Assembly (NCBI GenBank): GCA_964567665.1
Contig: CAZMNN010000005.1
Location: forward strand, 13,752 to 77,751
From: an uncultured Lentisphaeraceae bacterium
GTDB taxonomy: Bacteria > Verrucomicrobiota > Kiritimatiellia > RFP12 > UBA1067
DNA: 64,000 bases
Direction: 5' to 3'
Shown: positions 1,596-55,714 of the stretch, in pieces
Position numbering within the stretch: position 1 is the first letter of the stretch
Layout of the letters: the number at the start of each line of letters is the position of its first letter
Made by a program: the position numbers and the translations under genes
The notes under the pieces: generated by a model
Database searches by the model: none
What the model was told of the DNA's origin: nothing
Seen by the model: only the letters and a program-made list of their open reading frames with translations

Positions 1596-2486
1596 ATGAA
1601 CATGAAAACAGCCATGGGTGTATGCTGTGGAACTTTGATGATTTCCGCCATCGTCGTTTTGGCGGGATGCCATGTGCGGCCGCCGTCAGACGCCCTCGAT
1701 GAACCTGCCGCCGTTGAAGACGCGAACCCCACCCCGAAGAGGGTGACGAGACGGATATGTCTCCTTGAGAACGGCGACATCGGGAAGTACTGGTACACAT
1801 GGCTAAAGTCCGCACGAAAGCGCAACTGTGACACGAATGGCGTATTCACCGCTGAGGGGCGTACTCTCATGGTCAACGGGACGGACATGGGATGCGTCAC
1901 CACGCGTGATGCGTACAGTGACTACAGGCTTACACTTGAATTTCGCTATGTCGACAACGACAGGCAGTTGAACAAGAGGGCAGCCCGCGACGGCGGAATC
2001 CTGTTTCATTCAAACGGACCTGACGGGGCGTACGGAAACGGTATCTGGATGTACTCCTTCGAGTATAACATCATACAGGGGGCTGCCGGCGATCTGATTG
2101 TTGTTGGCAATGCGGCGAACCGCGCAGATGCACCGCACTATTCCTGCAAAGGGAACGTCAACCGGGGAACAATGGGGACGCCGGCTCAGCATTGGGATCC
2201 CAGCGGACCCGAAATCGTGCTGAAGGACAGTGGAAGGGTGCGTCGCTGCGACATTGATCACGAATGGAAGAATCTCATGTCGCAGCCGCTTTCACCGAAC
2301 GAAAACCCGATTGGCGAATGGAACCGAGCAGAGGTTGTGTGCCGTGGTGACAGCGCCGAGTTTTTCTTCAACGGTAAAAAGGTCGCTGAGTTCCGTGAAC
2401 TTAAGCCGTCTTCGGGACGCATCCAGCTTCAGAGCGAAGGATTCGGAATAGAGTACCGGAATATCGTGCTTGAGCCGGTGGAATGA
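1596..2486 (+). CDS. lipoprotein with DUF1080 (3-keto-disaccharide hydrolase-like, concanavalin-type) domain
   Basis: Signal peptide with lipobox LAGC; C-terminal IQLQSEGFGIEYRNIVLEP typical of DUF1080. Confidence 0.7.
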   Translation: MNMKTAMGVCCGTLMISAIVVLAGCHVRPPSDALDEPAAVEDANPTPKRVTRRICLLENGDIGKYWYTWLKSARKRNCDTNGVFTAEGRTLMVNGTDMGCVTTRDAYSDYRLTLEFRYVDNDRQLNKRAARDGGILFHSNGPDGAYGNGIWMYSFEYNIIQGAAGDLIVVGNAANRADAPHYSCKGNVNRGTMGTPAQHWDPSGPEIVLKDSGRVRRCDIDHEWKNLMSQPLSPNENPIGEWNRAEVVCRGDSAEFFFNGKKVAEFRELKPSSGRIQLQSEGFGIEYRNIVLEPVE

Positions 2487-2508
2487 CGTGAACAGGCGAA
2501 CGAAGTCC

Positions 2509-4572
2509 ATGAGGTTCATTTGCGGAGCGCGAGGCAGCCGGCTTTCCGTTGCGCAGGCGCAGGGTTGCATTGCCTTTCTTGAGGCTGCCGTCGACGGATT
2601 CCGGGCGAAGCTGCGGACGTTCAAGACGCCCGGCGACAGAGATCTTTCAACCCCGATAGAGAAAAGTGCACCGGATTTCTTCACCCGCGACCTTGACGAG
2701 GCTGTCCGGTCGGGTGCGGTGGATTTTGCTGTGCATTCCGCGAAAGATCTTCCCGACGCCATTGTCGATGACCTGGACTGGTTCTGGCTCCCGAACCGTG
2801 AAGATCCGCGTGACTGCTGGGTTGCAAGGCTTGACGGCCCGCTTGCCGATCTCGACGCAGCAAGACGGAAGGGGGCGGGAGCAAAGATCGGCGTGTCGAG
2901 CGAAAGGCGCCGCTCGTTTGCGGAATTGCGATATCCCATGGCGAATCTGTTGCCGATAAGGGGCGCAATCGATTCTCGGCTCAATCAGTTGGCGGACGGC
3001 AGATTTGATGCGGTGCTGATGGCTGTCGCCGGACTTAAACGCCTCTATCCAGGTTGGGACGGCGGGGACAGGCTTGATGTCGATGGTTGCGCCTCGTTTG
3101 CAGTGAAAACGATCGGTGTGGAGGCACTTCCGCCGCCGGAGGGGCAGGGGTGTCTCGCGGTTGTGTTCAAGAAAGGGGATGCGCGGCTTGCCGCCGTGCG
3201 CCGGAACTTTGTCAAGGCCGTTCGCTTCACGAGCGCAGGCGTCGGTGACGCCGGAACGATAACGGTGCGCGGTGCACGTGATCTGGAAGAGGCGGACGTA
3301 GTGCTTGCGGACGCTCTTTCGGGATTCGGCGGACAGCGGCGCGACGGTGCGAAATGGGTGAATGTTGGCAAGCGTTGCGGCGCGCATTCCATGGCTCAGG
3401 GAGAGATTACGCGGCTAATCTGCGATGAAGCGAGGAAGGGGAGGCGCGTCGTTCGCCTCAAAGGCGGCGACGCCGGACTGTTCGGACGGCTTGCCGAGGA
3501 GACGGCGGCGCTTGATGCACTCGGCATTCCGTATGTTGTGCGTCCGGGAGTAAGTGCGCTTGTCGCAGCCACGTCTCCGAACGGCATTCTCCTCACGAAG
3601 CGGGGCGAGGCCGGCGGGTTTGAGGTTTCCACTCCGAGATCGGCGGGCAAAAAGACGCCTAAGGTGTTTTTCATGGCAACGCGGGTTGCCGGCGAGACGT
3701 TGAAGCGGTTTCCGGCAGACGAACCGTACGCAATGGTGTGGGATGCCTGCGGGCCTCACGAACGGATTCAGACCGGAATGTGCGGGAGTCCGGAACTGCG
3801 GGCGGACGATGCTCCGGGACTGCTCGTCGTCGGCTATGCGGGCGCACCGGTTGCATCAAGGCGCATTCTTCTAACGTGTTCAGAAGCAGTGATGCCGTGC
3901 GCCGAATGTCTGTTTGAAGATAGAGGCTTCCGCGTGGTCAAATGGCCGATGATAGCGCTCAGGTTCCGCGAAAGCTGCCGTGACGCCATTTCAGATGTCG
4001 CAGGCCGGTATGATGCGATTGTGCTTACCAGCCCCAGCGCCGCCCGGATGTTCTTCTCGGAATGCAGTTGCGACCGGCGGCATCTGCCGCGCTTCTGGAC
4101 TTGCGGATCCGGCACGGACGCTGAACTTCGGCGAAACGGCGTATCGAGCGATGTTATGCCAGATGGCGATTTCTCAGCAAAAGGCCTCGTGGAGAAATTG
4201 AAGCGCAATGCCGGAATCGTGAAAGGCAGCCGCATCCTGCGTCTGCGCAGCGCGAAGGCAGGCGGCCATGTCGCCAACGCCATCAGGCGCATGGGCGGAA
4301 AGGTGGATGACGTTGTGCTTTACGACAATGTGCCTGTCGCGCACGACGAGGCCGCCATGCCGTCCTGCGACGCTGTGTTCTTTGCAAGCTCCAGCGCGGT
4401 GGAGGCGTTTGTCTCGCGGTATGGCGCGAAATCACTTTCGCGCATGGACATATACGTGATAGGCGAGCCTACGCGCCGTGCGCTTCCTTGCCGCATGAGG
4501 GGGCGGGCGACGCCTTTTTCGCTGGCGGCGTTTGAGTCCGCAGCCGGCGACACAACCAGGGAATACAGATGA
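2509..4572 (+). CDS. three-module fusion: HemC-like (porphobilinogen deaminase domains 1-2) / uroporphyrinogen-III C-methyltransferase (CobA/SUMT) / uroporphyrinogen-III synthase (HemD)
   Basis: N-term MRFICGARGSRLSVAQA and AVHSAKDLP, VGTSSxRR-like GVSSERRRSF, AVAGLKRL match HemC. Middle TSAGVGDAGTITVRGARDLEEADVV...VRLKGGDAGLFGR...VRPGVSAL matches SUMT. C-term IVLTSPSAARMF...VIGEPT matches HemD. ORF track starts at TTG 2470; ATG 2509 (or GTG 2488) is more likely. Confidence 0.75.
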   Translation: MRFICGARGSRLSVAQAQGCIAFLEAAVDGFRAKLRTFKTPGDRDLSTPIEKSAPDFFTRDLDEAVRSGAVDFAVHSAKDLPDAIVDDLDWFWLPNREDPRDCWVARLDGPLADLDAARRKGAGAKIGVSSERRRSFAELRYPMANLLPIRGAIDSRLNQLADGRFDAVLMAVAGLKRLYPGWDGGDRLDVDGCASFAVKTIGVEALPPPEGQGCLAVVFKKGDARLAAVRRNFVKAVRFTSAGVGDAGTITVRGARDLEEADVVLADALSGFGGQRRDGAKWVNVGKRCGAHSMAQGEITRLICDEARKGRRVVRLKGGDAGLFGRLAEETAALDALGIPYVVRPGVSALVAATSPNGILLTKRGEAGGFEVSTPRSAGKKTPKVFFMATRVAGETLKRFPADEPYAMVWDACGPHERIQTGMCGSPELRADDAPGLLVVGYAGAPVASRRILLTCSEAVMPCAECLFEDRGFRVVKWPMIALRFRESCRDAISDVAGRYDAIVLTSPSAARMFFSECSCDRRHLPRFWTCGSGTDAELRRNGVSSDVMPDGDFSAKGLVEKLKRNAGIVKGSRILRLRSAKAGGHVANAIRRMGGKVDDVVLYDNVPVAHDEAAMPSCDAVFFASSSAVEAFVSRYGAKSLSRMDIYVIGEPTRRALPCRMRGRATPFSLAAFESAAGDTTREYR

Positions 4573-17546: not shown

Positions 17547-19448
17547 ATGGCAACATCGGATCATCGGAGTCTCTTTTCGGTGAAGATGCGAGCGTCGCGC
17601 AACGGCGAGCACATCTCCGGAGCGGAGCGCATCGTCAGCGAATCGTCAATTCCGCAGCTTGTGGGCGTCATGGCGGAACGGGCACTACGCCACGCAAAGG
17701 GGAAGCCTGATTTCATAAACGTGAAGGTGGAGTCCGCCCCTGAGCCGCTTCTGCTGAAGGCCCTTCCCGTATCAACGCGCACTGTGAAGTCGCCTGAGGA
17801 GGGATGGAGCGCGGTGCGCGAGATCCTTGCTTCGGATGGCGTCACGCGCATCGACGAAATCGTCTCGCTGTTCAGGCAGACGTACGGAATGCGCGGAGCG
17901 ATGCTGCTTGACGCCGACACATTGGAGCGGCTTGAACCTGATCCGGCGAGAGGCGTAAGGGCGACGTTCATGGATGACGCCGCCAGCGCTTCGCACGGAT
18001 TCTCCAACGAGAAGAACCACTATGCGGAGGCGATTGTGCTTGCCACGAAGGTCGCGAACGCGCCGGGCATAGTCGGAGAGATATGCATGTCGGACGATCC
18101 GGACTACGTGACGGGGTATGTCGCGTCACGGCGCATCGGTTATGTGCGCATATCGTGCATGAAGCGTCCGGGAGACCCGTCGGGCGGAAGGATATTTCTC
18201 TATCGTGGACTGCGTTCGGACGTCGGAAACGCAATAGACTTCATACAGCGCAGATGCGTTCTCGTGACCGAGGTTCCGCCGCGTCCGTCGGAGATATGCA
18301 ATGCCGCGTCAAGCCGCCATTCCGAAAATCCGACGGCAGATGACATGAGGCGCGAACTGGACGACATCCGCACGGCGGGGCTATGGCGCGAAGTCCGGGA
18401 GCCCCCGTCTGGATTGAAGGCCTTTGCCGACAACGATTATCTTGGTCTCGCCGGAGATCCTCGCCTCAAGGAGGCTGCAAAGAACGCCACGGATGCGTTC
18501 GGTGCGGGAGCGGGCGCATCCCGTCTCGTGACCGGGACGCTGCCGCCGCATCTTGAGCTGGAGCGACACCTTGCGCGGTTCAAGGGAACGGAGGATGCCA
18601 TAACCTGGGCTACGGGCTACATGGCCAATCTCGGCACGATATCCGCCATTGCCGGAAAGGGCGACGCCGTGTTCAGCGACGAGCTGAACCACGCGAGCAT
18701 TGTGGACGGTTGCCGCCTTTCCAAGGCAGATGTCTTTGTGTACCGGCACAACGACATGGCTGACCTCGCCGTGAAGATTGCCGGTGCAGGGCGGCGCAGA
18801 CGGATGTTGGCGGTGTCCGATGCGGTGTTTTCAATGGATGGCGATGTGATGGATCTGCCTCGCTTCATCGATGTGTGCCGCACCGGCGGCGTAATGTCGA
18901 TGGTGGACGAAGCCCATTCCACTGGAGTTATGGGAGCGACGGGACGCGGCCTCTGCGAACATTTCGGATGCAGTCATCCCGACATTCTCATGGGGACGCT
19001 TTCAAAAGCCGCAGGAAGTGAAGGCGGATACGTGTGCGCGTCGAAGATGATTTGCGACTATCTGCGGAACAGGTCGCGTCCGTTCATCTTCTCCACGGCG
19101 TACAATCCAGGTTCGGCGGCTGCGGCGGATGCCGCGCTTTCGCTTATTGAACGCCATCCCGAACTCGCCGCAACGGTGCGGCGGAAGGCGCAGGATTTCG
19201 CGGCGATGCTCCGCGAACGCGGCATTTCCGCCAAGACGGAGAGTGCAATCGTCCCTGTCGTAATCGGTGATGAGCGCAGAGCGGTGGAGGTGTCCGGCGA
19301 ACTCCGCAGACGCGGATTTCTTGTCCCGGCGATACGCTATCCGACGGTCGCCAAAGGTGCGGCGCGTCTTCGCGTGTCGGTTTCGGCGGCGTCCCGCCAT
19401 GAAGACCTGTGTGCGCTCGCAGATGCGATTGCCGGCTGCATGAGGTAG
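17547..19448 (+). CDS. fusion of 6-carboxyhexanoate-CoA ligase (BioW) and 8-amino-7-oxononanoate synthase (BioF)
   Basis: N-terminal half aligns to B. subtilis BioW (FSVKMRASRNGEHISGAER, GKPDF, SPEEG, SDDPDYVTGYVASRRIGYVRI). C-terminal half is a class-II aminotransferase with BioF features (DNDYLGL, SMDGDVMDL, TLSKAAG PLP lysine region). Confidence 0.8.
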   Translation: MATSDHRSLFSVKMRASRNGEHISGAERIVSESSIPQLVGVMAERALRHAKGKPDFINVKVESAPEPLLLKALPVSTRTVKSPEEGWSAVREILASDGVTRIDEIVSLFRQTYGMRGAMLLDADTLERLEPDPARGVRATFMDDAASASHGFSNEKNHYAEAIVLATKVANAPGIVGEICMSDDPDYVTGYVASRRIGYVRISCMKRPGDPSGGRIFLYRGLRSDVGNAIDFIQRRCVLVTEVPPRPSEICNAASSRHSENPTADDMRRELDDIRTAGLWREVREPPSGLKAFADNDYLGLAGDPRLKEAAKNATDAFGAGAGASRLVTGTLPPHLELERHLARFKGTEDAITWATGYMANLGTISAIAGKGDAVFSDELNHASIVDGCRLSKADVFVYRHNDMADLAVKIAGAGRRRRMLAVSDAVFSMDGDVMDLPRFIDVCRTGGVMSMVDEAHSTGVMGATGRGLCEHFGCSHPDILMGTLSKAAGSEGGYVCASKMICDYLRNRSRPFIFSTAYNPGSAAAADAALSLIERHPELAATVRRKAQDFAAMLRERGISAKTESAIVPVVIGDERRAVEVSGELRRRGFLVPAIRYPTVAKGAARLRVSVSAASRHEDLCALADAIAGCMR

Positions 19449-22494: not shown

Positions 22495-22523
22495 CTGACG
22501 CAGTTTGCGAATTGTGGTATAAT
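22495..22523 (+). promoter_or_regulatory. promoter CTGACG-N17-TATAAT with TG extension (TGGTATAAT)
   Basis: -10 at 22518-22523, about 40 nt before ATG 22565, which has AAAGGAG SD. Confidence 0.45.
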
Positions 22524-22564
22524 TGACAACAGTTTTCTTTCGTCACAACCAAAGGAGTATACAT

Positions 22565-24040
22565 ATGAAAAACATCGCCCTTGTGGCGGCTGGTTCGATT
22601 CTCGCCGGGTGCATCTCTGCGCCGGAGGTGAAGTGCGGATACCACTGCAAGCCTGCGGCGGAAGTTGCCGCCAACGCCGATGCCGACGGCTTTGTGCCGC
22701 TCTTCAACGGCAAAGATCTCACCGGATGGATCGGTGCGACCGGAATGTATGGTGTAGACCCCAAGGAGCCTGGCATACTGCAGTGCCTCCCCGACAGACA
22801 GGCGAAAGGCCAGCCCGGAAATCTCTGCACGGAGAAGCAGTACAGGAACTTCGTTCTCCGCTTTGAGTTCTGTATGCCGGAGAACGGCAATAACGGCCTC
22901 GGCATCCGTATGCCAAACCCCAACGTCGACTCTGCCTACGGCGGAATGTGCGAGCTGCAGCTTCTTGACGACGGCGGAAGCCAGTACTACGACGCCAATG
23001 CCGGACAGGACAAGCTTCACGGCTACCAGTACACGGGAAGCGTGTACGGCATCGTTCCGAGCCGCCGCGACAATGTCGGCAAGCAGATCTGGGGCAAGGA
23101 CAAGAACTTCACGGGAGGCGGATCCTACGTGAAGAAGCCTGGGATGTGGAACTTCGAGGAGGTTCGCGTAATCGGCAGCGAGATCGAGGTGTATCTCAAC
23201 GGCGTGCTCATCACGAAGGCGGATGTGTCGAAGTTCAAGGGCGACGGCACCGACACGCCGGACGGCAGGAAGCATCCCGGCCTCCACAACAAGATCGGAC
23301 ACATCGGCTGGCTCGGCCACGGGCACAACGTCAAGTGGCGCAACATCCGCATCAAGGAACTTCCTGAGGATGCGAAGATGGATGCGGTCTGCCCCTGCGC
23401 AGTCAAGAAATGCCCTGAAGGCTTCACAACGCTCTTCGACGGCAAGCCTGAGCAGCTCACCGCGAACTGGAAGGGCGTGACCACGCGTGAAGGGTTCGAC
23501 AACCCGATCAAGCGCCAGGCGGCCACGGACGGCAAGCGCGCCGATATGCAGAAGTTCGCCGATGAGCATATGCTCAAGCACTGGACGGTCGATCGCGGCG
23601 TCCTCCGCTTCGATGGATTGAAGGGCGGCTATTCGCTCGCCACAAAGAAGGACTACAAGGATTTCGAGATGTTTGTCGATTGGCGCATCGTCTCCGTGCA
23701 GGGCGACTCCGGGCTGTATCTGCGCGGTTCGCCGCAGGTGCAGATATGGGATGCCCACAACCAGTGGCACATCGGCTCCGGCGGCCTGTACAACAACCAG
23801 AAGAATCCGTCCAAGGCCCTCAAGATCGCGGACAACCTCGTCGGCACATGGAACACGTTCCGCATCAAGATGGTCGGCGAGAAGGTGTGGGTGTGGCTCA
23901 ACGGCGAACTCGTGGTCGACAACACCACGCTTGAGAACTACTGGGACCGCAGCCGGCCGATATTTCCGGTCGAGCAGATCGAGCTTCAGTGCCACGGCGA
24001 CCCCGTTGAATTCCGCAACATCTTCATAAAGGAACTTTGA
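22565..24040 (+). CDS. lipoprotein with two tandem DUF1080 (3-keto-disaccharide hydrolase-like) domains
   Basis: Signal peptide plus lipobox LAGC; each half ends in the DUF1080 signature (NVKWRNIRIKEL and VEFRNIFIKEL). Confidence 0.7.
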   Translation: MKNIALVAAGSILAGCISAPEVKCGYHCKPAAEVAANADADGFVPLFNGKDLTGWIGATGMYGVDPKEPGILQCLPDRQAKGQPGNLCTEKQYRNFVLRFEFCMPENGNNGLGIRMPNPNVDSAYGGMCELQLLDDGGSQYYDANAGQDKLHGYQYTGSVYGIVPSRRDNVGKQIWGKDKNFTGGGSYVKKPGMWNFEEVRVIGSEIEVYLNGVLITKADVSKFKGDGTDTPDGRKHPGLHNKIGHIGWLGHGHNVKWRNIRIKELPEDAKMDAVCPCAVKKCPEGFTTLFDGKPEQLTANWKGVTTREGFDNPIKRQAATDGKRADMQKFADEHMLKHWTVDRGVLRFDGLKGGYSLATKKDYKDFEMFVDWRIVSVQGDSGLYLRGSPQVQIWDAHNQWHIGSGGLYNNQKNPSKALKIADNLVGTWNTFRIKMVGEKVWVWLNGELVVDNTTLENYWDRSRPIFPVEQIELQCHGDPVEFRNIFIKEL

Positions 24041-31111: not shown

Positions 31112-32428
31112 ATGCAAAACAGAAGAGGATTCTTGAGGAACGCTGCGGCGTTTGGCGCATTCGCCATCGTGCCTGCCCGCGTCCTGCGCGGAGCGACAGC
31201 TCCGTCCAACCAGCTCACACGCGCTCTGATCGGCTTCGGTTCGATTGCGCATTCCGCAAACCATCTCCCGTTCAAGGGGTCGCGCCTCATCGGTCTCTGC
31301 GATCCGTACGAGGCTCGCGTACAGGCAGGTCTGAAGGCCGCGCAGGACAACGGCTTCGGAAAGATTAAGGGCTACGGGAACTTCCTTGAGCTGCTTGCAG
31401 ACAAGGATGTCGATATCGTCCACATCTGCACGCCGCCGCACTGGCATGGCTGCATGAGCGTGATGGCGGCGAACGCCGGAAAGGACATCTGGTGCGAAAA
31501 GCCGATGACGCGCACCGTGGGTGAAGGAAAGCGCGTGATGGAGGTCGTAAAGGCCAAGAAGCGCATGTTCCGGCTCAACACGTGGTTCCGCTTCCAGAGC
31601 ACATTCTACGGATTCGGCACGACCGTCAAGCCTATTCGTCAGGTTGTCGAAAACGGACTTCTCGGCGAAGGTCCGATCAAGTGCACGTTCGGCGCGGGAC
31701 AGGGCTTCAGCTGGAAGTTCTTCTGGTCTGGCCGCGTCAACTCCGCGCCGGAGCCGATACCCGCCGGGTTCGATTGGGACATGTGGCTCGGTCCGGCGCC
31801 GTGGAAGCCGTACACCGCGCACCGCGCCGGCACATCCTTCCGCGGCTACTGGGACTACGATTCGGGCGGGCTTGGCGACATGGCTCAGCACTATCTCGAT
31901 CCGCTCCAGTACCTTCTCTGCAAGGACGAGACGAGTCCGGTGAAGGTCGATTACGTTGGCCCGAAGCAGCATCCGGAATCCGTCGGTCGCTTCGACCGCA
32001 TCACGCTCACGTATGCGGACGGCACGGAGGTCGTGCTGGACGGCGACGAATCGCTCAAGGGCGAACCGCTCCTTCGCGGCTCTAACGGACTGTGCGTCTA
32101 CCCGAAGGCGAAGGACGGCAAGACACTCCGCCTTGTTGACGCCAGCGGCAAGGAGCTGAACGCGGAGAAGATCCTCTCCGACCTGCCCGAGCCGGCGCCT
32201 CAGCAGACCGACTTCATCGACAGCTGCACGAACCGCAAGACGTTTGCGCTCAACGAGTCGAACGGCTTCCGCTCCTGCACGATGTTCAACCTCGGAATCG
32301 CGGCTGAGCGCCTTGGACGCGGATTCAGGTTCGACCCCGAAACGCTCCACGCCGTGGACGATCCGGCGGCAGACCGTTTCCTCTACCAGTCCATGCGCGA
32401 ACCGTGGCGCAAGGAGATGTGGGGCTGA
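31112..32428 (+). CDS. Gfo/Idh/MocA-family oxidoreductase with twin-arginine (TAT) signal
   Basis: MQNRRGFLRNAAAFGAFA TAT motif; Rossmann N-terminus and DIVHICTPPHWH region typical of the family. Confidence 0.7.
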   Translation: MQNRRGFLRNAAAFGAFAIVPARVLRGATAPSNQLTRALIGFGSIAHSANHLPFKGSRLIGLCDPYEARVQAGLKAAQDNGFGKIKGYGNFLELLADKDVDIVHICTPPHWHGCMSVMAANAGKDIWCEKPMTRTVGEGKRVMEVVKAKKRMFRLNTWFRFQSTFYGFGTTVKPIRQVVENGLLGEGPIKCTFGAGQGFSWKFFWSGRVNSAPEPIPAGFDWDMWLGPAPWKPYTAHRAGTSFRGYWDYDSGGLGDMAQHYLDPLQYLLCKDETSPVKVDYVGPKQHPESVGRFDRITLTYADGTEVVLDGDESLKGEPLLRGSNGLCVYPKAKDGKTLRLVDASGKELNAEKILSDLPEPAPQQTDFIDSCTNRKTFALNESNGFRSCTMFNLGIAAERLGRGFRFDPETLHAVDDPAADRFLYQSMREPWRKEMWG

Positions 32429-32459
32429 TTCCAGATACATGACTACCGGAGAAGCAGAA

Positions 32460-33980
32460 ATGAAGAAACTTTTTTGTGCGATGATGATTGCCGGCGCGAT
32501 GGCCGCCGGTGCGGCGGATCCCAACAAGTACGCCGACTACGGAGCGGGCATGGCGCCGGACAAGACCTACCCGATGGCGGTGGAATGGCACGCCGCCAAC
32601 CGCGCCGCGATCGAGACGGAGACCTCGGACGACAAGCTTGCCGGGTTCGTGGCGGATTCGGCAAGCGCGAAGGCTCTGCTCGCCAAGGTCAAGCCGGCGT
32701 ACGACACCGACCCGATGGTGGCTGCGCAGGTCGCCGCAGCGAGCCAGTACGTGATGCGCACCGAACCGTCGTGGTGGGAGTTCTGGGCATGGTTCTCGGA
32801 CTCCGATCGTGACGTCTGGACTGCTGCGCTGCTCGAAGCGGCGGCTGACGCGAAGGACGCATACTGCAAGATGCTGTTCCTCGACCAGCTGCGCTGGTGC
32901 GGGCGGCAGGATCAGGCGGCGAACGTCCTTGAGATCGGAAAGGCGTCAAACGACAGGGGCGTGATGCAGTTCGCCGACATGGTGGCGGCGGAACTCGATC
33001 CTGAAGCCGGATGCGCGAAGGCCTGCTGCAAGGTCAATTGCCCGTACGGCAGCTGGGCGCTGACGCTTCCGTTCGATGCGATGAACGCCGGACACCTCAT
33101 CCTGTCGAAGGGCGCGGACGGCAAGCCCACGGCCACGCTGCTGTGGCGCTGGGGAAGTCCGTTCACCGTCGCCGGTGATGACCTCAAGGTCTGCAAGGAC
33201 GGCTTCACCCTCACGTTCGGCAACCACAAGCCGAAGGATCTGCCGCAGGACAAGAGCGCATGGCGCAGCGACCGCGTGATCGCGAAGATCTGCGGGGACT
33301 GGGCGGCCTGCACCCTCCAGAAGGTGGACGGCAACGGCAAGGTCGTCGGCGCGGTGCAGACGTTCTCCGCAAAGCGCAATCCGCCGATCGGTCCGAAGCC
33401 GGACCTCGCGAAGGCCGTGCGCGGCACTCCGGTGAACATCCTGGGCGGGACGATCGACGACTTTGAGTTAATGGAGAAGTCACTGACGAACGGCTGGACG
33501 CTGAAGGACGGAGTGCTCTCCAACCGCATTATGCGCGACACCAACGGCAAGTCGCTCCACAAGAACGGAAACCTCCGCACGAAGCGCACCGATTTCTTTG
33601 ACTTCAACCTCAAGTACGAAGTGCGCGTCCTTCCGGGCTGCAACTCCGGCGTGTATCTGCGCGGCATCTACGAGATTCAGGTGCTCGACAGCTACGGCAA
33701 GCCGGTCGACTGCCACAACATGGCGGCGTACTACGGCCGCGTTACGCCCCGCGTTGCGGCAGAGAAGAAGGCCGGCGAATGGCAGACGGTTGACGTCACG
33801 CTCTACAAGCGGCATCTCACGGTTGTCCTGAACGGCGTGAACATCATCGACAACGTGCCGGTCGTCGGAATCACCGGCGGCGCAATGACGGCGAACGAAT
33901 TCACGCCGGGACCGCTCTACATCCAGGGCGACCACTCTGACGCCGACTTCCGCAACATGGTGCTCACACCGTTGAAGTGA
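32460..33980 (+). CDS. secreted protein with C-terminal DUF1080 domain
   Basis: ATG 32460 with signal peptide MKKLFCAMMIAGAMAAGAA; C-terminal roughly 170 aa match the DUF1080 pattern (YLRGIYEIQVLDS...ADFRNMVLTP); the ORF track start 32244 overlaps the upstream gene. Confidence 0.6.
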   Translation: MKKLFCAMMIAGAMAAGAADPNKYADYGAGMAPDKTYPMAVEWHAANRAAIETETSDDKLAGFVADSASAKALLAKVKPAYDTDPMVAAQVAAASQYVMRTEPSWWEFWAWFSDSDRDVWTAALLEAAADAKDAYCKMLFLDQLRWCGRQDQAANVLEIGKASNDRGVMQFADMVAAELDPEAGCAKACCKVNCPYGSWALTLPFDAMNAGHLILSKGADGKPTATLLWRWGSPFTVAGDDLKVCKDGFTLTFGNHKPKDLPQDKSAWRSDRVIAKICGDWAACTLQKVDGNGKVVGAVQTFSAKRNPPIGPKPDLAKAVRGTPVNILGGTIDDFELMEKSLTNGWTLKDGVLSNRIMRDTNGKSLHKNGNLRTKRTDFFDFNLKYEVRVLPGCNSGVYLRGIYEIQVLDSYGKPVDCHNMAAYYGRVTPRVAAEKKAGEWQTVDVTLYKRHLTVVLNGVNIIDNVPVVGITGGAMTANEFTPGPLYIQGDHSDADFRNMVLTPLK

Positions 33981-34266: not shown

Positions 34267-35502
34267 ATGAGCTATCAGGAAGCGAAAAAGAAATACGCCG
34301 TGCTCGGCGTAGACACCGAAGCGGCGATAAAGTCGCTGCAGAAGGTTTCCATATCGATGCACTGCTGGCAGGGTGATGACGTCGGCGGGTTCGAGAACGA
34401 TCTCGGCGCGACTGGCGGCATCCAGGCCACGGGCAACTATCCGGGTAAGGCGCGTACGCCGGAGGAGCTTATGGCGGATATCGACAAGGCCCTGTCCCTG
34501 ATTCCCGGCAAGCACCGCATCAACCTTCACGCCTGCTATGCGATCTTCGAGGACGGCAAGAAGGTGGACCGCAACAAGCTTGAGCCGAAGCATTTCAGGA
34601 AGTGGGTGGAATTTGCGAAGAAGCGCGGTCTCGGCCTTGACTTCAATCCGACGTTCTTCTCGCATCCGCTGGCCGACGGGCTTACGCTTGCAAGCGAAGA
34701 TCCCAAGGTTCGCAAGTTCTGGATCGAGCACGGCATCGCGAGCCTCAAGATCGCCGAGTATTTCGGCAAGGAGCTTGGTACGCCCTGCACGGTGAACTTC
34801 TGGGTGCCGGATGGCTTCAAGGATGAACCGTCCGACCGCTTCGGGCCGCGCAAGCGCCTCAAGGAATCGTACGACAAGATCTTCAAGTACAGGTACAACA
34901 GGAAGCTCTGCGTACCTACCATAGAGTCGAAGCTCTTCGGCATCGGGGTTGAGAGTTGCACACCCGGCTCCCACGAGTTCTACATGTGCTACGCCATGAA
35001 GAACAACATCCTCTGTCTGCTTGACACCGGCCATTTCCACATCTCCGAGAACGTCGCGGACAAGATAAGTTCGCTTCTGCTCTTCTCGGGCAAGGTGGCA
35101 TTCCACGTATCGCGTCCCGTCCGCTGGGACTCCGACCACGTAATCCGTCTTGACGACTCCGTCATTGCCTGTGCGCATGAGATTGTGCGGAACGGTGTGG
35201 AGAACTTCATCATCGCCCTCGACTACTTCGATGCGTCCATCAACCGCATTGCGGCCTGGGTGCTTGGAATGCGCAACATGCAGAAGGCTCTTCTTCAGGC
35301 GATGCTTGAGCCAAGCGAGACGCTCAAGGCGCTGCAGGATGCCCGCCAGTTCACGGAGCAGCTTGTCCTTCAGGAGGAGCTTAAGGCCTATCCGTGGCAG
35401 GAGGTCTGGAAGGAGTTCTGCTCAAGGGCGAAGCTTCCGGCCGATGAATGCTGGATGGCGGAGGTGCTGAAGTACGAACGCGATGTGCTTTCCAGGCGCT
35501 GA
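34267..35502 (+). CDS. rhaA: L-rhamnose isomerase
   Basis: Near-collinear match to E. coli RhaA (VSMHCWQGDDV.GFEN, TGGIQATGNYPGKAR, LGLDFNP.FFSHP, ESKLFGIGVES, VSRPVRWDSDHV, DFFDASINRIAAWV). Confidence 0.9.
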   Translation: MSYQEAKKKYAVLGVDTEAAIKSLQKVSISMHCWQGDDVGGFENDLGATGGIQATGNYPGKARTPEELMADIDKALSLIPGKHRINLHACYAIFEDGKKVDRNKLEPKHFRKWVEFAKKRGLGLDFNPTFFSHPLADGLTLASEDPKVRKFWIEHGIASLKIAEYFGKELGTPCTVNFWVPDGFKDEPSDRFGPRKRLKESYDKIFKYRYNRKLCVPTIESKLFGIGVESCTPGSHEFYMCYAMKNNILCLLDTGHFHISENVADKISSLLLFSGKVAFHVSRPVRWDSDHVIRLDDSVIACAHEIVRNGVENFIIALDYFDASINRIAAWVLGMRNMQKALLQAMLEPSETLKALQDARQFTEQLVLQEELKAYPWQEVWKEFCSRAKLPADECWMAEVLKYERDVLSRR

Positions 35503-46004: not shown

Positions 46005-47798
46005 ATGAAAACATTGAAGTCTATGCTTGCAGTGGCGACGGCTGTCGGCCTTGCCACCGCAGTTCAGGCCGTGCAAGACAAGTACGTATCTACCGGCTTT
46101 GAAAAGCTGGATCAGGGAGACCCGGTGACGACGGGAGTTAAGGATAACAGCAATGGCGATTCTTACTTCTATTTTGCCGGTAGCAATGACGATGACAATG
46201 AATCGACAATTGTCGCTTTTGAGGACAATGGATCGCCTGTAGCACGTCCGAAAGGTGTGTCACGATTCACTGATGCCGACAGTACGGCCAGGACAAATGC
46301 ATTGCAGGTCAGCACGGGTACCGATCCTCTCCTTCGCACTTTCCTTCCAGCTCCGATTAGCAACAGCGGAACTCTTTCACAATCTCCGATTGAGGAGGTG
46401 ACGTACATTGATACATTGGTTCAATTCACCGTCACTCCGTCAACGGACAATGTGACTCCAGGTGAAGATGACAAGTTGATGATCTATCTCAAAGAAAGCA
46501 TAGTGTCCAACAATACTGATGTTGCGTCCGATGGCACTGATGCTGAAAGTGGTGAACCTGCCAGTACTCCACCGGTAACCAACCTTGTGGTGCTTGCCGG
46601 TTTTCATGGTGCGGAAGGTGTGGTTTCTTACGAATACAATGTCATGAATCCTGGACTTTCGGTTGTTCCCGGAAAGTGGTATCGCCTTACCGTAAAGGTA
46701 ATACCCGATGTCACGCTTTATGTTGATGAAGAAACTAAGGAATACGCCCATGCCGATTTAAGCCATGTAGGGTTCTCCGTCTATATCGATGGCATTCAGT
46801 GCGTATTTGACAAGATGATTTACGATGAGACGATAGAGACGGAGGATGCTCCAGGTTATCTGTATATTGATTCCGTGTACAACAGTGAAGCGAATGGAGC
46901 GCAGATTGATAATAAGGCGATATTGCTCTCATTGCTCGCTGAAAATGGTAAAAGCTTGAACGATTCTAACCAGCCTGTGCTTTACGCTGTAGGTTTTGCC
47001 GGTGAAGGCATGGTGGACGATTTGGTGTATACCACGTCAGATCCTTTCGCATCAACGGTTGATTTCACGCTTGCTTTCGGTGCCGACAATACGATTTCAA
47101 GTGTTGAATATACGGTTGGTGAAACGGTGGGCACCATACAGAACCGGACATTTGAGGATGTTGTGGTTGGTTCGCTTGTGGAAATCAAAGACATTGGATT
47201 CGCTGATGGCTACGAGTTTGACAAATTTACCCTTGCAGGGGTGACGCAGGAGGCTACGACGACAGATGGATCTGTTGCGACGTTTAAGATCAATGATGAT
47301 GCGACAGGTAATGTCAGCCTCACGATTGTGGCGAAGGAAAAGGCCGCTACGTATCCGACATATGTCGATACAAATGACACGACCAGCGCGAGCAAATATG
47401 TTGCATGGTTAGAGGATGTCAGCGGTATTGCCGCAGGCGGGGATGCCTCTGCATATGAGAAGCAGTTCCTCTTGAATCAGGCGATCAGCAAGGCAATCGC
47501 CGACAATGCGCTTGTCATCAAGTCCATCACGGAGAACGCGAACGGCGGCTGGGATATCGTCATCGGCTGCTCGGTTGAGGGTGTTGGTCTCTCGACCACT
47601 GAAGGTGAAAATGCACAGGTTTGCAACGGCTACCTCGCGGTCAGCTACACTTCGGATCTCTCCGGCACCTGGACGACGGAGAACATCAATGTCACGGCTG
47701 GCACCGAGAACGGTACGGTCAAGGTGAACGTCAACAAGAGTGGTGCGAAGTTCATGAAGGTTTCGCTCAAGGCGGCGAAGGAGCCTACGCAGGAGTAA
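46005..47798 (+). CDS. secreted hypothetical protein (597 aa) in an anomalously low-GC patch
   Basis: Signal peptide MKTLKSMLAVATAVGLATAVQA; Thr/Val/Asp/Gly-rich; no recognised domain; GC about 42-50% over 46000-47400 versus about 60-65% elsewhere. Confidence 0.5.
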   Translation: MKTLKSMLAVATAVGLATAVQAVQDKYVSTGFEKLDQGDPVTTGVKDNSNGDSYFYFAGSNDDDNESTIVAFEDNGSPVARPKGVSRFTDADSTARTNALQVSTGTDPLLRTFLPAPISNSGTLSQSPIEEVTYIDTLVQFTVTPSTDNVTPGEDDKLMIYLKESIVSNNTDVASDGTDAESGEPASTPPVTNLVVLAGFHGAEGVVSYEYNVMNPGLSVVPGKWYRLTVKVIPDVTLYVDEETKEYAHADLSHVGFSVYIDGIQCVFDKMIYDETIETEDAPGYLYIDSVYNSEANGAQIDNKAILLSLLAENGKSLNDSNQPVLYAVGFAGEGMVDDLVYTTSDPFASTVDFTLAFGADNTISSVEYTVGETVGTIQNRTFEDVVVGSLVEIKDIGFADGYEFDKFTLAGVTQEATTTDGSVATFKINDDATGNVSLTIVAKEKAATYPTYVDTNDTTSASKYVAWLEDVSGIAAGGDASAYEKQFLLNQAISKAIADNALVIKSITENANGGWDIVIGCSVEGVGLSTTEGENAQVCNGYLAVSYTSDLSGTWTTENINVTAGTENGTVKVNVNKSGAKFMKVSLKAAKEPTQE

Positions 47799-52950: not shown

Positions 52951-52956
52951 CCGGAT

Positions 52957-52972
52957 GCGTCATGGCGTCATG
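52957..52972. repeat. tandem direct 8-mer GCGTCATG GCGTCATG over the -35 region of the etfB-like promoter
   Basis: Exact tandem copy at 52957-52964 and 52965-52972, immediately upstream of TGGTATAAT. Confidence 0.4.
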
Positions 52973-52976
52973 TTTG

Positions 52977-52985
52977 TGGTATAAT
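52977..52985 (+). promoter_or_regulatory. extended -10 box TGGTATAAT upstream of etfB-like gene
   Basis: Exact match about 40 nt before ATG 53026. Confidence 0.45.
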
Positions 52986-53025
52986 GCCGCGCTTTGAGTC
53001 AACAGACAACACAGGTGATAGAGAA

Positions 53026-53826
53026 ATGTCAAAACCGCTGAACATAGTCGTATGCGGATCGCTCGTTCCGGATCCGCTCCAGACACTTGAACCGGTTCAG
53101 ACTCCGCAGGGTCCGGGGCTGAAGAATGAGCAGATGCTTCCGTCGGTGCTTGATCCGTGGGCGGCGTGTGCGCTCTACGAGGCCGCCGCTCTCGCCAAGA
53201 CCCGCCCCGGCTCGAAGGTCACGCTTGTCGCGCTTGGGCCGAAGGCCAAGCTCCAGCAGCTTATGATGACCGTGGCGCAGAAGGTTCCGTTCGAACTTGT
53301 AGCCGTGAACGCCTCTGCAGGCGGCTTCACGGATGCGAAGGCCACGGCGACGGAGCTTGCGAAGGCGATAAAGGCGATGCCGACGGCCCCTGACTTCATC
53401 TTCGGCGGATGCGCAAGCGCATCCCGCGACGCTGGCGTCACTCTTCAGTTCGTTGCGGAGATGCTTGGGATCACCGAGTTCTTCAACGCGGTCGACGAGC
53501 TTAAGCTCGCCGATGACGACGCATTCACGGTCAAGGAGCGCGTGGAGGGCGGCAAGTACCTTTCGTCCACGTGCAGCGGATTCCCTGCGGTCATCGGCTG
53601 GGCGACGGGAAGCCTGCCTGAGCCGCCGAACAACCCGCAGACGGGCATGATGAACATGCGCGGGGTGATGCCGGCTCTCATGAAGGCGCCCATGGCCAAT
53701 GTCGGCGCGGGCGGAATCGCATGGGAGAAGGCCGAAATCCCCGCGTCAAGGCGCGATACGGTTGTCAAGAAGGATATGTCCGTTGAGGATATCGCCAAGG
53801 AAATAGTGGAGTGGGTGAAATCATGA
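53026..53826 (+). CDS. electron-transfer-flavoprotein beta-subunit-like protein (EtfB/FixA family, divergent)
   Basis: LNIVVCGSLVPDP (ETF-beta KILVCVKxVPD), LDPWAACALYEAAALAK, VTLVALGP; collinear with ETFB over the whole length at low identity. Confidence 0.65.
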   Translation: MSKPLNIVVCGSLVPDPLQTLEPVQTPQGPGLKNEQMLPSVLDPWAACALYEAAALAKTRPGSKVTLVALGPKAKLQQLMMTVAQKVPFELVAVNASAGGFTDAKATATELAKAIKAMPTAPDFIFGGCASASRDAGVTLQFVAEMLGITEFFNAVDELKLADDDAFTVKERVEGGKYLSSTCSGFPAVIGWATGSLPEPPNNPQTGMMNMRGVMPALMKAPMANVGAGGIAWEKAEIPASRRDTVVKKDMSVEDIAKEIVEWVKS

Positions 53827-54656
53827 GGATCGTAGCGTTCAGGATTGACGGCAACGGGACTTTTGCGCAGGACGTACCGGCGTTCGCGCAGGCGATCAAG
53901 GACAGCGGGGCGGATATTGTGATTCTCCCCGGCAATTCCCGCGTGAAGCGTTCCGCCGCTGCGGCGGCGCTCCGTGCCGGCGGCGAGGTGGACACCAACG
54001 TGGTGGAGCTTGAGGTTGCGGACGGCAAGGCCGTCGCGAGCCGATGGGTGTACAGGCAGCGCATCTTCACGAAGTTCACGCGCACCGCAAAGCCGTGGGT
54101 CATCGTGGCCGACCCCTCGCTGTTCCAGGGGATGTGCGAGTCGGTCAACGCCGAGATGCAGACGCTTGACGTTCAGCCGGCGGCATCCCGCACCGTCGTC
54201 AACGGTGTCGAGAACGCCGGAACGGGCGGCGAATCAACGATACGCCCCGATGCGGAGCTGCTGTTCGTCGCCGGCGCGGGCTGGACGAAGAAGCAGGCGG
54301 ACGGCGCACTTCATTTAGACGATGCCGCCGCGACGATCACCGGCTTCCTCGCGAAGTCCGGCGCGTCTCTCGGCTCCTCGAAGTCGCTTGTGGACATGCC
54401 GGAGGCGGCGGAGGTGTTCAAGTTCATGAGCCACATGAACCAGGTCGGCCAGACCGGCTCCACTCCGCGTCACAAGAAGGGGCTTTCGACGTGCTGCCAC
54501 GGCGAGGAGCCGCATGTGGTCGGCTGGAGATTCGTCAACGAACGCAGGGCGGTCAACCTTGACGCAAACTGCGGCTGGGCGCAGGGCAAGGCCGATGTGG
54601 TGTATGTCGCCGATGCCTTTGCGGTCATGAAGAAGGTGAATGAGCTTCTTGGCTGA
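53823..54656 (+). CDS. electron-transfer-flavoprotein alpha-subunit-like protein (EtfA/FixB family, strongly divergent)
   Basis: AELLFVAGAGW and QVGQTGSTP resemble ETF-alpha, but the downstream FAD-binding signature (GISGAIQH) is not recognisable; ATGA coupling to the etfB-like gene. Confidence 0.5.
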   Translation: MRIVAFRIDGNGTFAQDVPAFAQAIKDSGADIVILPGNSRVKRSAAAAALRAGGEVDTNVVELEVADGKAVASRWVYRQRIFTKFTRTAKPWVIVADPSLFQGMCESVNAEMQTLDVQPAASRTVVNGVENAGTGGESTIRPDAELLFVAGAGWTKKQADGALHLDDAAATITGFLAKSGASLGSSKSLVDMPEAAEVFKFMSHMNQVGQTGSTPRHKKGLSTCCHGEEPHVVGWRFVNERRAVNLDANCGWAQGKADVVYVADAFAVMKKVNELLG

Positions 54657-54658
54657 CG

Positions 54659-55714
54659 ATGGCGGTCTCTGACGAAGTGTCTGTTGGAATCGTCGGGTGC
54701 GGCAGATGCACGACATTCGGGCATCTGCCGGCTCTCGCGAAGCTCAAGGGTATGTACCACATCGCCGCAGTGTGCGATGTGGTCAAGTCCAGGCGGGACT
54801 GCATCAGCGCAGAGTTTCCGGATGCGCGCCACTACCGCAGAATCGAGGACATGGTGGATGCGCCGGACATCAACCTTGTGCTGGTGGCGACGCCGACCCT
54901 TGAGCATGAAAGCATCGTCCTTGAATGTCTCAACCGTGGGCTGTGGACGGTGTGCGAGACGCCTGTCGCGGTGTCCCACGACGGGACACTTGTCCTTCGC
55001 GGGGCGTCCGTCAAGGTCGGCCGCAAGCTGATTGCGGCTACGCCGGCCCTCTTCTCGAACGAGTTCAGGCTCGCCATGATGGCGCGTTCGCTGCGCAAGA
55101 TAGGCAGGCTTTACGACATCCGCATCCGCAAATCGACCTATCAAAGGCGCATGGATTGGCAGGCGACGGCGAAGCGCGCTGGCGGGGCTGCGCATTTCGC
55201 CGCCCAGGAGCCGACGCTCCAGGCGCTCACGATACTTGGTGCGCCGCCCGTGCAGATGTGGAGCGAAACCAAGAAGCTTGTCGCGCTCGGCGATGCTGAG
55301 GACTACGTCCGTCTTCTGATGCGGACTGCGGACGGTGTGACGGCCGACATTGAGACCAACTCGGCCGTCGTGAGGACCGGCGAGCCTGAGATCATGCTTC
55401 GTGGCACACGCGGCTCGTTCTCCATATTCCCCGGAACGACGATAGGGCGCTATGCCATAATCGATCCGGCGCAGCACCTTCCGAACAAGCGCAGCAGCGT
55501 GGCGCTTCCGCCGCTTGAGGCGCAGACGGAAAACATACGCGTGGCGTATGACGAACTTGCGCTTCCCGATCCGATGCCGCCGTACGAGGCCTTCTGGAAG
55601 GCGGTGTACAGGACTGTCGTTCTCGGAGAGCAGTTCCCTGTGGATTTCGACCTTGTGGTCGAGATGTCACGGTACATCGGAATCGTCCGCAAGTCCATCC
55701 CGATCGCCATTTGA
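54659..55714 (+). CDS. Gfo/Idh/MocA-family NAD(P)-dependent oxidoreductase (cytoplasmic)
   Basis: VGIVGCGRCTTFGHLPAL Rossmann N-terminus and family-typical EHE region; starts 3 nt after the etfA-like stop. Confidence 0.65.
   Translation: MAVSDEVSVGIVGCGRCTTFGHLPALAKLKGMYHIAAVCDVVKSRRDCISAEFPDARHYRRIEDMVDAPDINLVLVATPTLEHESIVLECLNRGLWTVCETPVAVSHDGTLVLRGASVKVGRKLIAATPALFSNEFRLAMMARSLRKIGRLYDIRIRKSTYQRRMDWQATAKRAGGAAHFAAQEPTLQALTILGAPPVQMWSETKKLVALGDAEDYVRLLMRTADGVTADIETNSAVVRTGEPEIMLRGTRGSFSIFPGTTIGRYAIIDPAQHLPNKRSSVALPPLEAQTENIRVAYDELALPDPMPPYEAFWKAVYRTVVLGEQFPVDFDLVVEMSRYIGIVRKSIPIAI

Follow-up and report, generated by a model that had tools for sequence, protein, structure and literature searches.

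The locus

The DNA under study is a 64,000-nucleotide stretch (hereafter the window) of contig CAZMNN010000005.1, from an uncultured Lentisphaeraceae bacterium assigned to the Kiritimatiellia. Three genes on its + strand, between positions 53026 and 55714, encode in this order a homolog of the beta (small) subunit of electron transfer flavoproteins (ETFs), a homolog of the alpha (large) subunit, and a protein of the Gfo/Idh/MocA fold. They are called here EtfB-like, EtfA-like and Gfo-like, and are described in Table 1. The three genes are a tight, co-transcribed unit with its own conserved promoter. By sequence comparison, the ETF pair makes part of a distinct, apparently unclassified, widespread and unusually conserved ETF clade, of which it is probably a trimmed and orphaned member. 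Loci and proteins used for comparison are cited by L and P numbers.

The EtfB-like and EtfA-like genes share an ATGA overlap, as proposed in an earlier reading made from the sequence only. The gap between the EtfA-like stop and the Gfo-like start, given there as 3 nt, measures 2 nt (CG). An ATG at 52984 was rejected as the start of the EtfB-like gene: it sits within the -10 box, and a conserved ribosome-binding site precedes the start at 53026. Genes for GH16, gmd, fcl and GH123 (formerly DUF4091) lie upstream of the trio, rpmH and then yidC and ileS downstream. NCBIfam searches with the three proteins returned weak, generic matches only, hence no dedicated NCBIfam model exists for them.

The EtfB-like subunit

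The EtfB-like protein matches the ETF family PF01012 at 48.9 bits (gathering score 26.7; residues 35-202), and aligns end to end with references of the ETF groups G1-G5 at 18-24% identity, which bears out the whole-length, low-identity homology noticed earlier. The best matches in the Protein Data Bank (PDB), by plain phmmer, are beta subunits of the bifurcating type (6fah_B, E 2.4e-7; 4kpu_B, E 1.2e-5). In the alignment, the recognition-loop region is retained, and reads LPEPPNNPQTGMMNMRGVMPALMKA where canonical proteins feature LNEPRYxxLPNIMKAKKK; across the clade the loop has the form LPEPxNxPxxGMxNMxxxMPA and is at least 95% conserved. The loop G(K/R)QAID(D/G)D, which serves adenosine monophosphate (AMP) or the beta-subunit flavin adenine dinucleotide (FAD), is absent. 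The EtfB-like protein has GGCASASRDAG, and the family consensus is GG(W)xSAxR(G/D)xG.

The EtfA-like subunit

The EtfA-like protein is shortened at the N terminus. PF01012 is matched at 39.3 bits over profile positions 78-177 of 181 only, so that the N-terminal domain is incomplete. Reference EtfAs exceed it in length by 33-69 aa, in keeping with the deficit of about 40 aa estimated earlier; compared with full-length members of the clade and with every reference, it lacks some 65 N-terminal residues of domain I, a loss partly offset by insertions of 8 and 7 aa in domain II. No separately encoded EtfA N-terminal segment was found in the 64-kb window.

Searched as a single sequence against PDB sequences (phmmer), the EtfA-like protein found no match. 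The family profile matched the EtfA of W3A1 (E 1.3e-8, residues 19-275), and hhalign paired the family with eight canonical EtfAs at 99.2% probability (E 1.6e-19, 316 columns). An AlphaFold2 model, built on a 43-sequence alignment that included representatives of 50%-identity clusters, reached a mean predicted local distance difference test (pLDDT) score of 83.6. A shallower alignment of 22 sequences gave a pLDDT of about 30 in domain II and was unusable; an alignment of all representatives (148 sequences) was set aside as noisy, since it contained frameshifted fragments. The top 18 PDB matches of the model in Foldseek are all full-length ETF alpha chains (263-324 aligned columns), 3clr_D and 1o96 being the best, and domain I, though shortened, keeps a compact alpha/beta fold (pLDDT 82-97). 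Profile and fold comparisons alike make homology to both EtfA domains secure.

The motifs AELLFVAGAGW (residues 144-154) and QVGQTG (207-212), singled out in the sequence-only reading, were confirmed. The landmarks retained in the FAD domain (domain II) are G151, G153, S186, K187 (Arg in canonical proteins), Q207-G212, G227, H231, N245, D247, D258 and D264, G151 and G153 lying in the region that corresponds to GGRG of canonical EtfA. Apart from position 187, these residues belong to those invariant in all reference ETFs, most of which are kept, and are near-invariant in the clade; the window protein keeps every clade-invariant residue of the cofactor domain. The canonical FAD-contact motifs compared were GGRG, (A/G)SR, QVGQTG, GISGAIQH, NxD and VGD. 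Besides the two insertions and the Arg to Lys187 change, domain II differs in having (T)CCHGEEPH for GISGAIQH and NCGWA for PEAPIF. Flavin is predicted to be still bound in domain II, mainly on the basis of the operon context of the clade.

In residues 223-231 and 249-253 (window positions 54489-54515 and 54567-54581) the invariant series C-C-H-G-E-E-P-H and N-C-G-W take the place of the FAD pyrophosphate loop and of the neighbouring loop. The two loops house three Cys and two His; C225, H226, H231, C250 and W252 are at least 95% conserved in 82 sequences from more than 15 phyla. This Cys/His set could be a metal site, or a point of covalent flavin attachment.

An apparently unclassified ETF clade

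Electrons from many dehydrogenases enter respiratory chains through ETFs, which also provide the best-studied platform for flavin-based electron bifurcation. They have reportedly been sorted into groups G1-G5 by Garcia Costas et al. in 2017; the classification is used to predict which ETFs bifurcate.

More than 8000 close relatives of the EtfA-like protein are present in a 90%-cluster database. A phmmer search over 1.84 billion 50%-cluster representatives retrieved only 295 proteins, and no canonical EtfA among them; the family is therefore large, yet sharply separated. In a scan of one genome per species, the clade was found in at least 567 species and more than 15 phyla. Carriers include Kiritimatiellia, Lentisphaerae, Verrucomicrobiota, Planctomycetota, Desulfovibrionaceae, Geobacteraceae and Anaeromyxobacter, as well as Acidobacteriota, Gemmatimonadota, KSB1, Omnitrophota, Sumerlaeota and Hydrogenedentes. 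Across phyla, identity to the window is still 53-60%. Residues conserved in at least 95% of 82 distinct sequences make up 35% of the EtfA-like and 32% of the EtfB-like protein.

Compared with 17 reference sequences of groups G1-G5, both subunits are 18-24% identical to G1, G2, G3 and G4/G5 members alike. In neighbour-joining trees built with 9 alpha and 9 beta group-labelled references (supplement of PMC10734219), a crude test with few references, both subunits fall outside all G1-G5 sequences. The two results agree with the earlier view that both proteins are divergent ETF subunits outside the ordinary subfamilies.

A literature search found no relevant account of the clade motifs, of an ETF-Gfo pairing, of new ETF groups, or of ETFs in Kiritimatiellae. 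No description was found of the clade, of its rewritten loops and strength of conservation, or of the truncated orphan form; the ETF fold and its role are known.

Partners of the pair and their loss

Gene context was analyzed by clustering the open reading frames (ORFs) of 85 loci. The two subunit genes adjoin in 81 of them. Outside the PVC (Planctomycetes, Verrucomicrobia, Chlamydiae) group, a gene of about 620 aa resembling ETF:quinone oxidoreductase (ETF-QO) lies immediately upstream of the pair in 23/26 loci. Its product matches PF21162 and 2gmh (E 2e-29), and carries a C-terminal domain with 2x[4Fe-4S] (Fer4). A gene of about 750 aa resembling acyl-CoA dehydrogenases (ACADs) precedes the pair in 21/25 non-PVC loci; the protein features the Acyl-CoA_dh_N and Acyl-CoA_dh_1 domains, and matches butyryl-CoA dehydrogenase (E 2e-9). 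Flanks outside this four-gene module vary. The presence of ACAD-like and ETF-QO/ferredoxin-like neighbours in non-PVC phyla marks the clade as a working ACAD / ETF / ETF-QO (FixCX-like) module. The sequence-only reading had named ACADs, FixCX and lactate dehydrogenases as partners of canonical ETFs; the idea that ETFs of the present type lack ACAD/FixCX partners is reversed for this clade outside the PVC group.

The linkage is already looser in the PVC group, where the ETF-QO-like gene is adjacent in 7/13 loci with full-length pairs. One locus of the Kiritimatiellia (L030) retains the whole module. In a clade of gut Kiritimatiellia and Lentisphaerae, which includes the window (L001-L028, 67-98% identity), EtfA measures 277 aa and lacks the 65 or so N-terminal residues. 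An ACAD-like or ETF-QO-like gene adjoins the truncated pair in 0/15 loci of this clade. No homolog of the ACAD-like protein or of the ETF-QO-like/FixCX-like protein, and no second ETF, was found in the 64-kb window. The possibility that the pair consists of decaying genes was rejected, given the 71-98% identity across the gut clade and the intact clade invariants.

Other settings of clade pairs were also observed. In L004-6, L014 and L022 (4003-7184 in L004) the truncated pair is directly preceded by genes for a small subunit of the Gluconate_2-dh3 type exported by twin-arginine translocation (TAT), a GMC flavoprotein and a cytochrome. The latter is a membrane-anchored cytochrome c with about eight CxxCH motifs, and its stop codon overlaps the EtfB start. 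In two gut Kiritimatiellia loci (L004 10715-15845; L023 5626-8617) genes for a canonical EtfB, an EtfA with a ferredoxin domain, an ETF-QO and a Gfo/Idh/MocA protein of 463-471 aa lie in a row; here an ETF system and a Gfo gene are neighbours for a second time, in a separate arrangement. In L090 (3954-7473 of a 1.1-Mb contig) a full-length clade pair without ACAD or ETF-QO neighbours follows a family 2 glycosyltransferase (GT2) gene and a gene encoding a 958-aa GT2-GT2-radical SAM/SPASM fusion protein. Two contigs of metagenome-assembled genomes labelled Akkermansia (L054, L086) also carry a full-length pair without such neighbours (57-59% EtfA and 70-71% EtfB identity); if the binning is right, the orphan form occurs in a genetically tractable gut genus.

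The Gfo-like gene

The Gfo-like protein matches PF01408 (GFO_IDH_MocA, 53.5 bits) and PF22725 (GFO_IDH_MocA_C3, 36.9 bits), and its best PDB match is DgpA1 (E 3e-14). No signal peptide and no TAT signal were detected. The Rossmann motif G13-x-G15-R16 and the acidic residue at the end of beta-2 (D40) are kept. Aligned with DgpA, YvaA and 3q2i, the protein shows CETP for CEKP and GGAAHFAAQE for GGxxxNxxxH. The change marks every member of the subfamily, all having E-(T/A/S/V)-P in place of EKP and, at the (D/N)xxxH site, one aromatic and one acidic residue, whereas the nearest canonical relatives (P0357, P0362, P0365) have EKP and N..H intact. The subfamily is small (about 86 clusters at 90% identity, 36-99% identical to the window protein). 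The description of the third gene as a sugar-dehydrogenase-type enzyme was thus not upheld; judging from these residues, its role is probably non-catalytic or non-canonical.

The coupling of the Gfo-like gene to the ETF pair, stressed in the sequence-only reading, is real in a limited set of genomes. The gene adjoins the pair in L001-3, L007-10 and L091, the coding regions overlapping by 4 nt or being separated by 2-11 nt; in L091 the coupling is still tight although the Gfo-like protein is down to 53% identity. No Gfo-like gene was found beside the sister truncated pairs of L004-6 and L011-L028, nor beside the full-length pairs of all 58 loci. In L013, which shares both the promoter and the DHH gene downstream, the Gfo-like gene is absent. 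Subfamily members at 36-45% identity sit in unrelated contexts, never beside an ETF pair. Between the same pairs of genomes, Gfo-like proteins are 66-68% identical, vs 90-92% for EtfB and 83% for EtfA, an evolution about three times faster. The flanks of the trio differ as well, being GH123 and rpmH in the window, SNF2 helicase/PFK and DHH in L001. The glycan-processing setting assumed earlier does exist here, with GH16, gmd, fcl and GH123 upstream, but is not conserved between genomes. The Gfo-like protein is, at most, an accessory, lineage-specific operon companion, and not the defining partner of the ETF.

A second Gfo/Idh/MocA gene of the window (31112-32428, 438 aa) encodes a protein with a TAT signal (MQNRRGFLRNAAAFGAFA), an intact CEKP and a GFO_IDH_MocA_C2 domain. 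It is followed by a gene with a 3-keto-disaccharide-hydrolase domain, the two spanning 31112-33980; another 3keto-disac_hyd protein and an L-rhamnose isomerase are encoded nearby (22523-24040 and 34267-35502). Taken together, these genes resemble a canonical periplasmic glycoside-3-dehydrogenase-type system, located about 20 kb from the trio.

Promoter, repeat and other features of the window

The claim that the trio carries its own TGGTATAAT promoter held. The box is kept at -46 to -51 from the EtfB start in L001, L007-L010 and L013, where the upstream genes differ, and a conserved leader (AAGGTAGGTG...AGAAATG) was found in related loci. The ten TGNTATAAT boxes on the + strand lie mostly 35-55 nt ahead of ORF starts, and this extended -10 therefore appears to be the standard promoter architecture of the organism. 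A consensus scan found no match to a -35 hexamer at the ETF promoter or at the other TGNTATAAT boxes.

The tandem GCGTCATG repeat, also noticed earlier, is real; no other 8-mer is duplicated exactly and in tandem in the window. At 52954-52969 a weak hairpin resembling a terminator overlaps it. The repeat was rejected as an operator because it is degenerate even in a relative as close as L007 (98% identity); it is probably not functional.

Table 1. Features of the ETF operon and related promoter boxes in the window.
Feature	Position	Strand	Remarks
Tandem GCGTCATG x2	52957-52972		overlaps weak hairpin right after the GH123 stop
Extended -10 box TGGTATAAT of the ETF operon	52977-52985	+	one of ten TGNTATAAT boxes on the + strand
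Ribosome-binding site AGGTGA of the EtfB-like gene	53013-53018	+	read from the sequence
EtfB-like gene (gene 1)	53026-53826	+	266 aa; small subunit
EtfA-like gene (gene 2)	53823-54656	+	277 aa; large subunit, N-terminally truncated, CCHGEEPH variant of the FAD loop
Gfo/Idh/MocA-fold gene (gene 3)	54659-55714	+	351 aa; cytoplasmic, canonical catalytic Lys and His missing
TGNTATAAT boxes	1580, 9486, 10344, 22515, 38948, 47886, 49111, 52977, 55788, 61545	+	

Some other genes of the window stand out. An ORF of 597 aa just upstream of GH16 (46005-47798) has no Pfam match and a G+C content of 49.7%, vs about 60% elsewhere, and is a candidate for horizontal acquisition. Multi-domain fusion genes occur at two places, 2470-4572 and 17547-19448; they join HemC, a tetrapyrrole methylase and HemD (700 aa), and BioW and a BioF-type aminotransferase (633 aa), respectively.

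Interpretation and alternatives

The pair is probably a trimmed and orphaned member of the unclassified ETF clade, which still acts as a flavin electron carrier and to which the Gfo-like protein is a lineage-specific, possibly accessory, addition. The ancestral ETF would have shuttled electrons between two enzymes of its own operon, the ACAD-like dehydrogenase and the ETF-QO/ferredoxin-type quinone reductase. These neighbours and about 65 N-terminal residues of EtfA domain I have been lost in the gut Kiritimatiellia/Lentisphaerae lineage; the cofactor domain and the EtfB docking loop have been kept. Flavin would reside in EtfA domain II, the EtfB recognition loop would dock onto a dehydrogenase, and donor and acceptor of the trimmed ETF would be encoded elsewhere, or have been replaced. 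The gene for the Gfo-like protein, which has an NAD(P)-binding fold, joined the pair by co-transcription and translational coupling in one sub-lineage only.

Several observations weigh against this account. The EtfA-like protein scores 20.6 bits against PF00766 (ETF_alpha), under the gathering score of 27. Scores are lower still in full-length clade members (13-14 bits), and P0146 alone passes; being shared throughout the clade, the low score is no peculiarity of the window protein. The canonical pyrophosphate loop GISGAIQH is replaced and the AMP/FAD loop of EtfB has also been rewritten; together with the PF00766 scores, these changes suggest that the cofactor set may differ from FAD plus AMP/FAD. 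The placement of the clade outside G1-G5 relies on few reference sequences and a crude neighbour-joining tree. In the GMC/cytochrome loci the truncated pair is associated, independently and for a second time, with a set of carbohydrate-type oxidoreductases. The trio genes remain overlapped or almost so even where gene order around them breaks down and identity of the Gfo-like protein falls to 53%, a pattern expected of a functional operon.

The rewritten loops (GISGAIQH to CCHGEEPH, QAIDxD to SASRDAG), the PF00766 scores, the truncation of EtfA domain I and the lack of a redox partner in the window would all suit an ETF-fold pair which has lost FAD and been repurposed as a non-redox nucleotide-binding (AANH-like) or regulatory heterodimer; the sequence-only reading had suggested AANH-like nucleotide-binding subunits. 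Its remark that gene 2 lacks the canonical FAD-binding signature is borne out by the rewritten loop and the sub-threshold family score. Most FAD-domain landmarks are kept. S186, K187, QVGQTG, H231, N245/D247 and D264 align with canonical FAD-contact motifs, all clade-invariant residues of domain II are found in the window protein, and conservation of the partner recognition loop in EtfB reaches 95% or more. The same clade resides in ACAD/ETF-QO operons in 23/26 non-PVC loci, a setting sensible only for a redox-active carrier. A non-flavin role is very improbable, because the landmark residues of the FAD domain have been retained and are near-invariant.

More serious, though a good deal less probable than the account preferred here, is that the truncated pair still serves ACAD-like and ETF-QO-like proteins encoded elsewhere in the genome, only gene order having changed and the adjacency of the Gfo-like gene being incidental. 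The partial unlinking seen in PVC loci with full-length pairs, the complete module of L030, and the unchanged docking loop and cofactor domain fit this explanation. Against it stands the exact coincidence of the N-terminal truncation with the loss of adjacency, which suggests a change of partner or architecture.

It is doubtful, in turn, that the EtfB-like, EtfA-like and Gfo-like proteins form one module, relaying electrons from the oxidation of sugars, or of sugar-derived NAD(P)H, to the flavin carrier. The trio occurs as one block, promoter included, in different genomic contexts; in every trio locus, even L091, start and stop codons overlap or lie 2-11 nt from each other, and the Gfo-like protein retains the Rossmann GxGR and the acidic residue of beta-2. 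In another sub-lineage the truncated pair is operonic with a GMC/cytochrome set of the sugar-dehydrogenase type, and L004 and L023 have a canonical Etf/ETF-QO cluster beside another Gfo gene. These points are countered by the restriction of the linkage to one sub-lineage, by L013, which shares promoter and DHH gene and not the Gfo-like gene, and by the distant subfamily members which never adjoin an ETF pair. The catalytic Lys and His are missing, the Lys position varies (T/A/S/V), and the Gfo-like protein outpaces the ETF subunits in evolution about threefold. The group is rich in Gfo/Idh/MocA genes, a second one lying in the window itself, and no precedent was found in the literature search. 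A dedicated sugar-oxidation relay is possible and weakly supported.

A more daring combination is a long shot. In the CCHGEEPH clade, the Cys-Cys-His...His...Cys set might house a metal or Fe-S centre, or be the site of a covalent link to the flavin, and the trimmed gut form might have been rewired from ACAD/ETF-QO to carbohydrate-type partners, namely the Gfo-like protein in one sub-lineage and, in another, the TAT-exported GMC flavoprotein with its multihaem cytochrome. If true, anaerobic glycan degraders would possess an ETF-based relay of a new kind.

Significance

A clade with rewritten nucleotide loops, found in at least 567 species and represented by thousands of 90%-identity clusters, appears to lie outside G1-G5 and has no characterised member. 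Its carriers range from soil Acidobacteriota to sulfate and metal reducers, Planctomycetota and the gut PVC group, and knowledge of its cofactors and partners would fill a gap in maps of anaerobic electron transfer. The trimmed gut form marks the ETF as a module detachable from its ACAD/ETF-QO partners, and raises the question of the electron source in glycan-fermenting Kiritimatiellia. For annotation, a Gfo/Idh/MocA match beside an ETF should not be taken for a sugar-oxidation pathway, nor should members of the Gfo-like subfamily be called dehydrogenases.

Comparison with known systems

The Gfo-like protein shares the N-terminal Rossmann domain and the C-terminal alpha/beta domain with Gfo/Idh/MocA 3-/2-dehydrogenases (DgpA, 9M3D/7XR9; YvaA, 3GDO; IolG). 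It differs in having Thr for the Lys of EKP (Ala, Ser or Val in relatives) and F...E for (D/N)xxxH, and is cytoplasmic, unlike the canonical TAT-exported Gfo protein of the window with its CEKP. Gal80-type proteins have the Gfo/Idh/MocA fold and a dinucleotide-binding site without dehydrogenase chemistry. By analogy, they may offer a precedent for a non-enzymatic role of the Gfo-like protein, though no regulatory context is evident at the locus.

Bifurcating EtfAB/FixAB systems (A. fermentans, 4KPU; CarDE, 6FAH; T. maritima EtfABCX, 7KOE) provide the beta subunits which score best against the EtfB-like protein, and VPD and D-x-x-A-T type motifs are common to both. The YdiO-YdiQRST and CaiA-FixABCX genes of E. 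coli are sets of this type. The ETF-QO-like protein of the clade in other phyla, with its C-terminal 2x[4Fe-4S] ferredoxin-like domain and an adjacent ACAD gene, resembles a FixC-FixX fusion. In contrast, the G2 loop G(R/K)QAIDGDTAQVGP is absent from the window pair, which does not cluster with G2 references; the window EtfA has no ferredoxin domain, and FixCX-like and ACAD-like genes are missing from the window.

Canonical non-bifurcating ETFs (human ETFA/ETFB, 1EFV; Paracoccus, 1EFP; Methylophilus W3A1, 1O94/3CLU) differ from the clade by the low identity (18-24%) and by the loops. GISGAIQH corresponds to CCHGEEPH, PEAPIF to NCGWA, GGRG to GAGW plus the 8-aa insertion, and the beta AMP loop QAIDDD to SASR(D/G)xG; in the window lineage, the first 65 or so residues of alpha domain I are also missing, and PF00766 is matched below threshold. 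Both subunits of the pair are nonetheless homologous to canonical ETFs over their full length, and the genes are arranged likewise, beta then alpha and adjacent. Ser-(Arg/Lys), QVGQTG, the His, N-x-D and the terminal Asp of the FAD domain are shared, as is the recognition-loop region of the beta subunit, and the clade is, like canonical ETFs, tied to ACAD and ETF-QO in most phyla.

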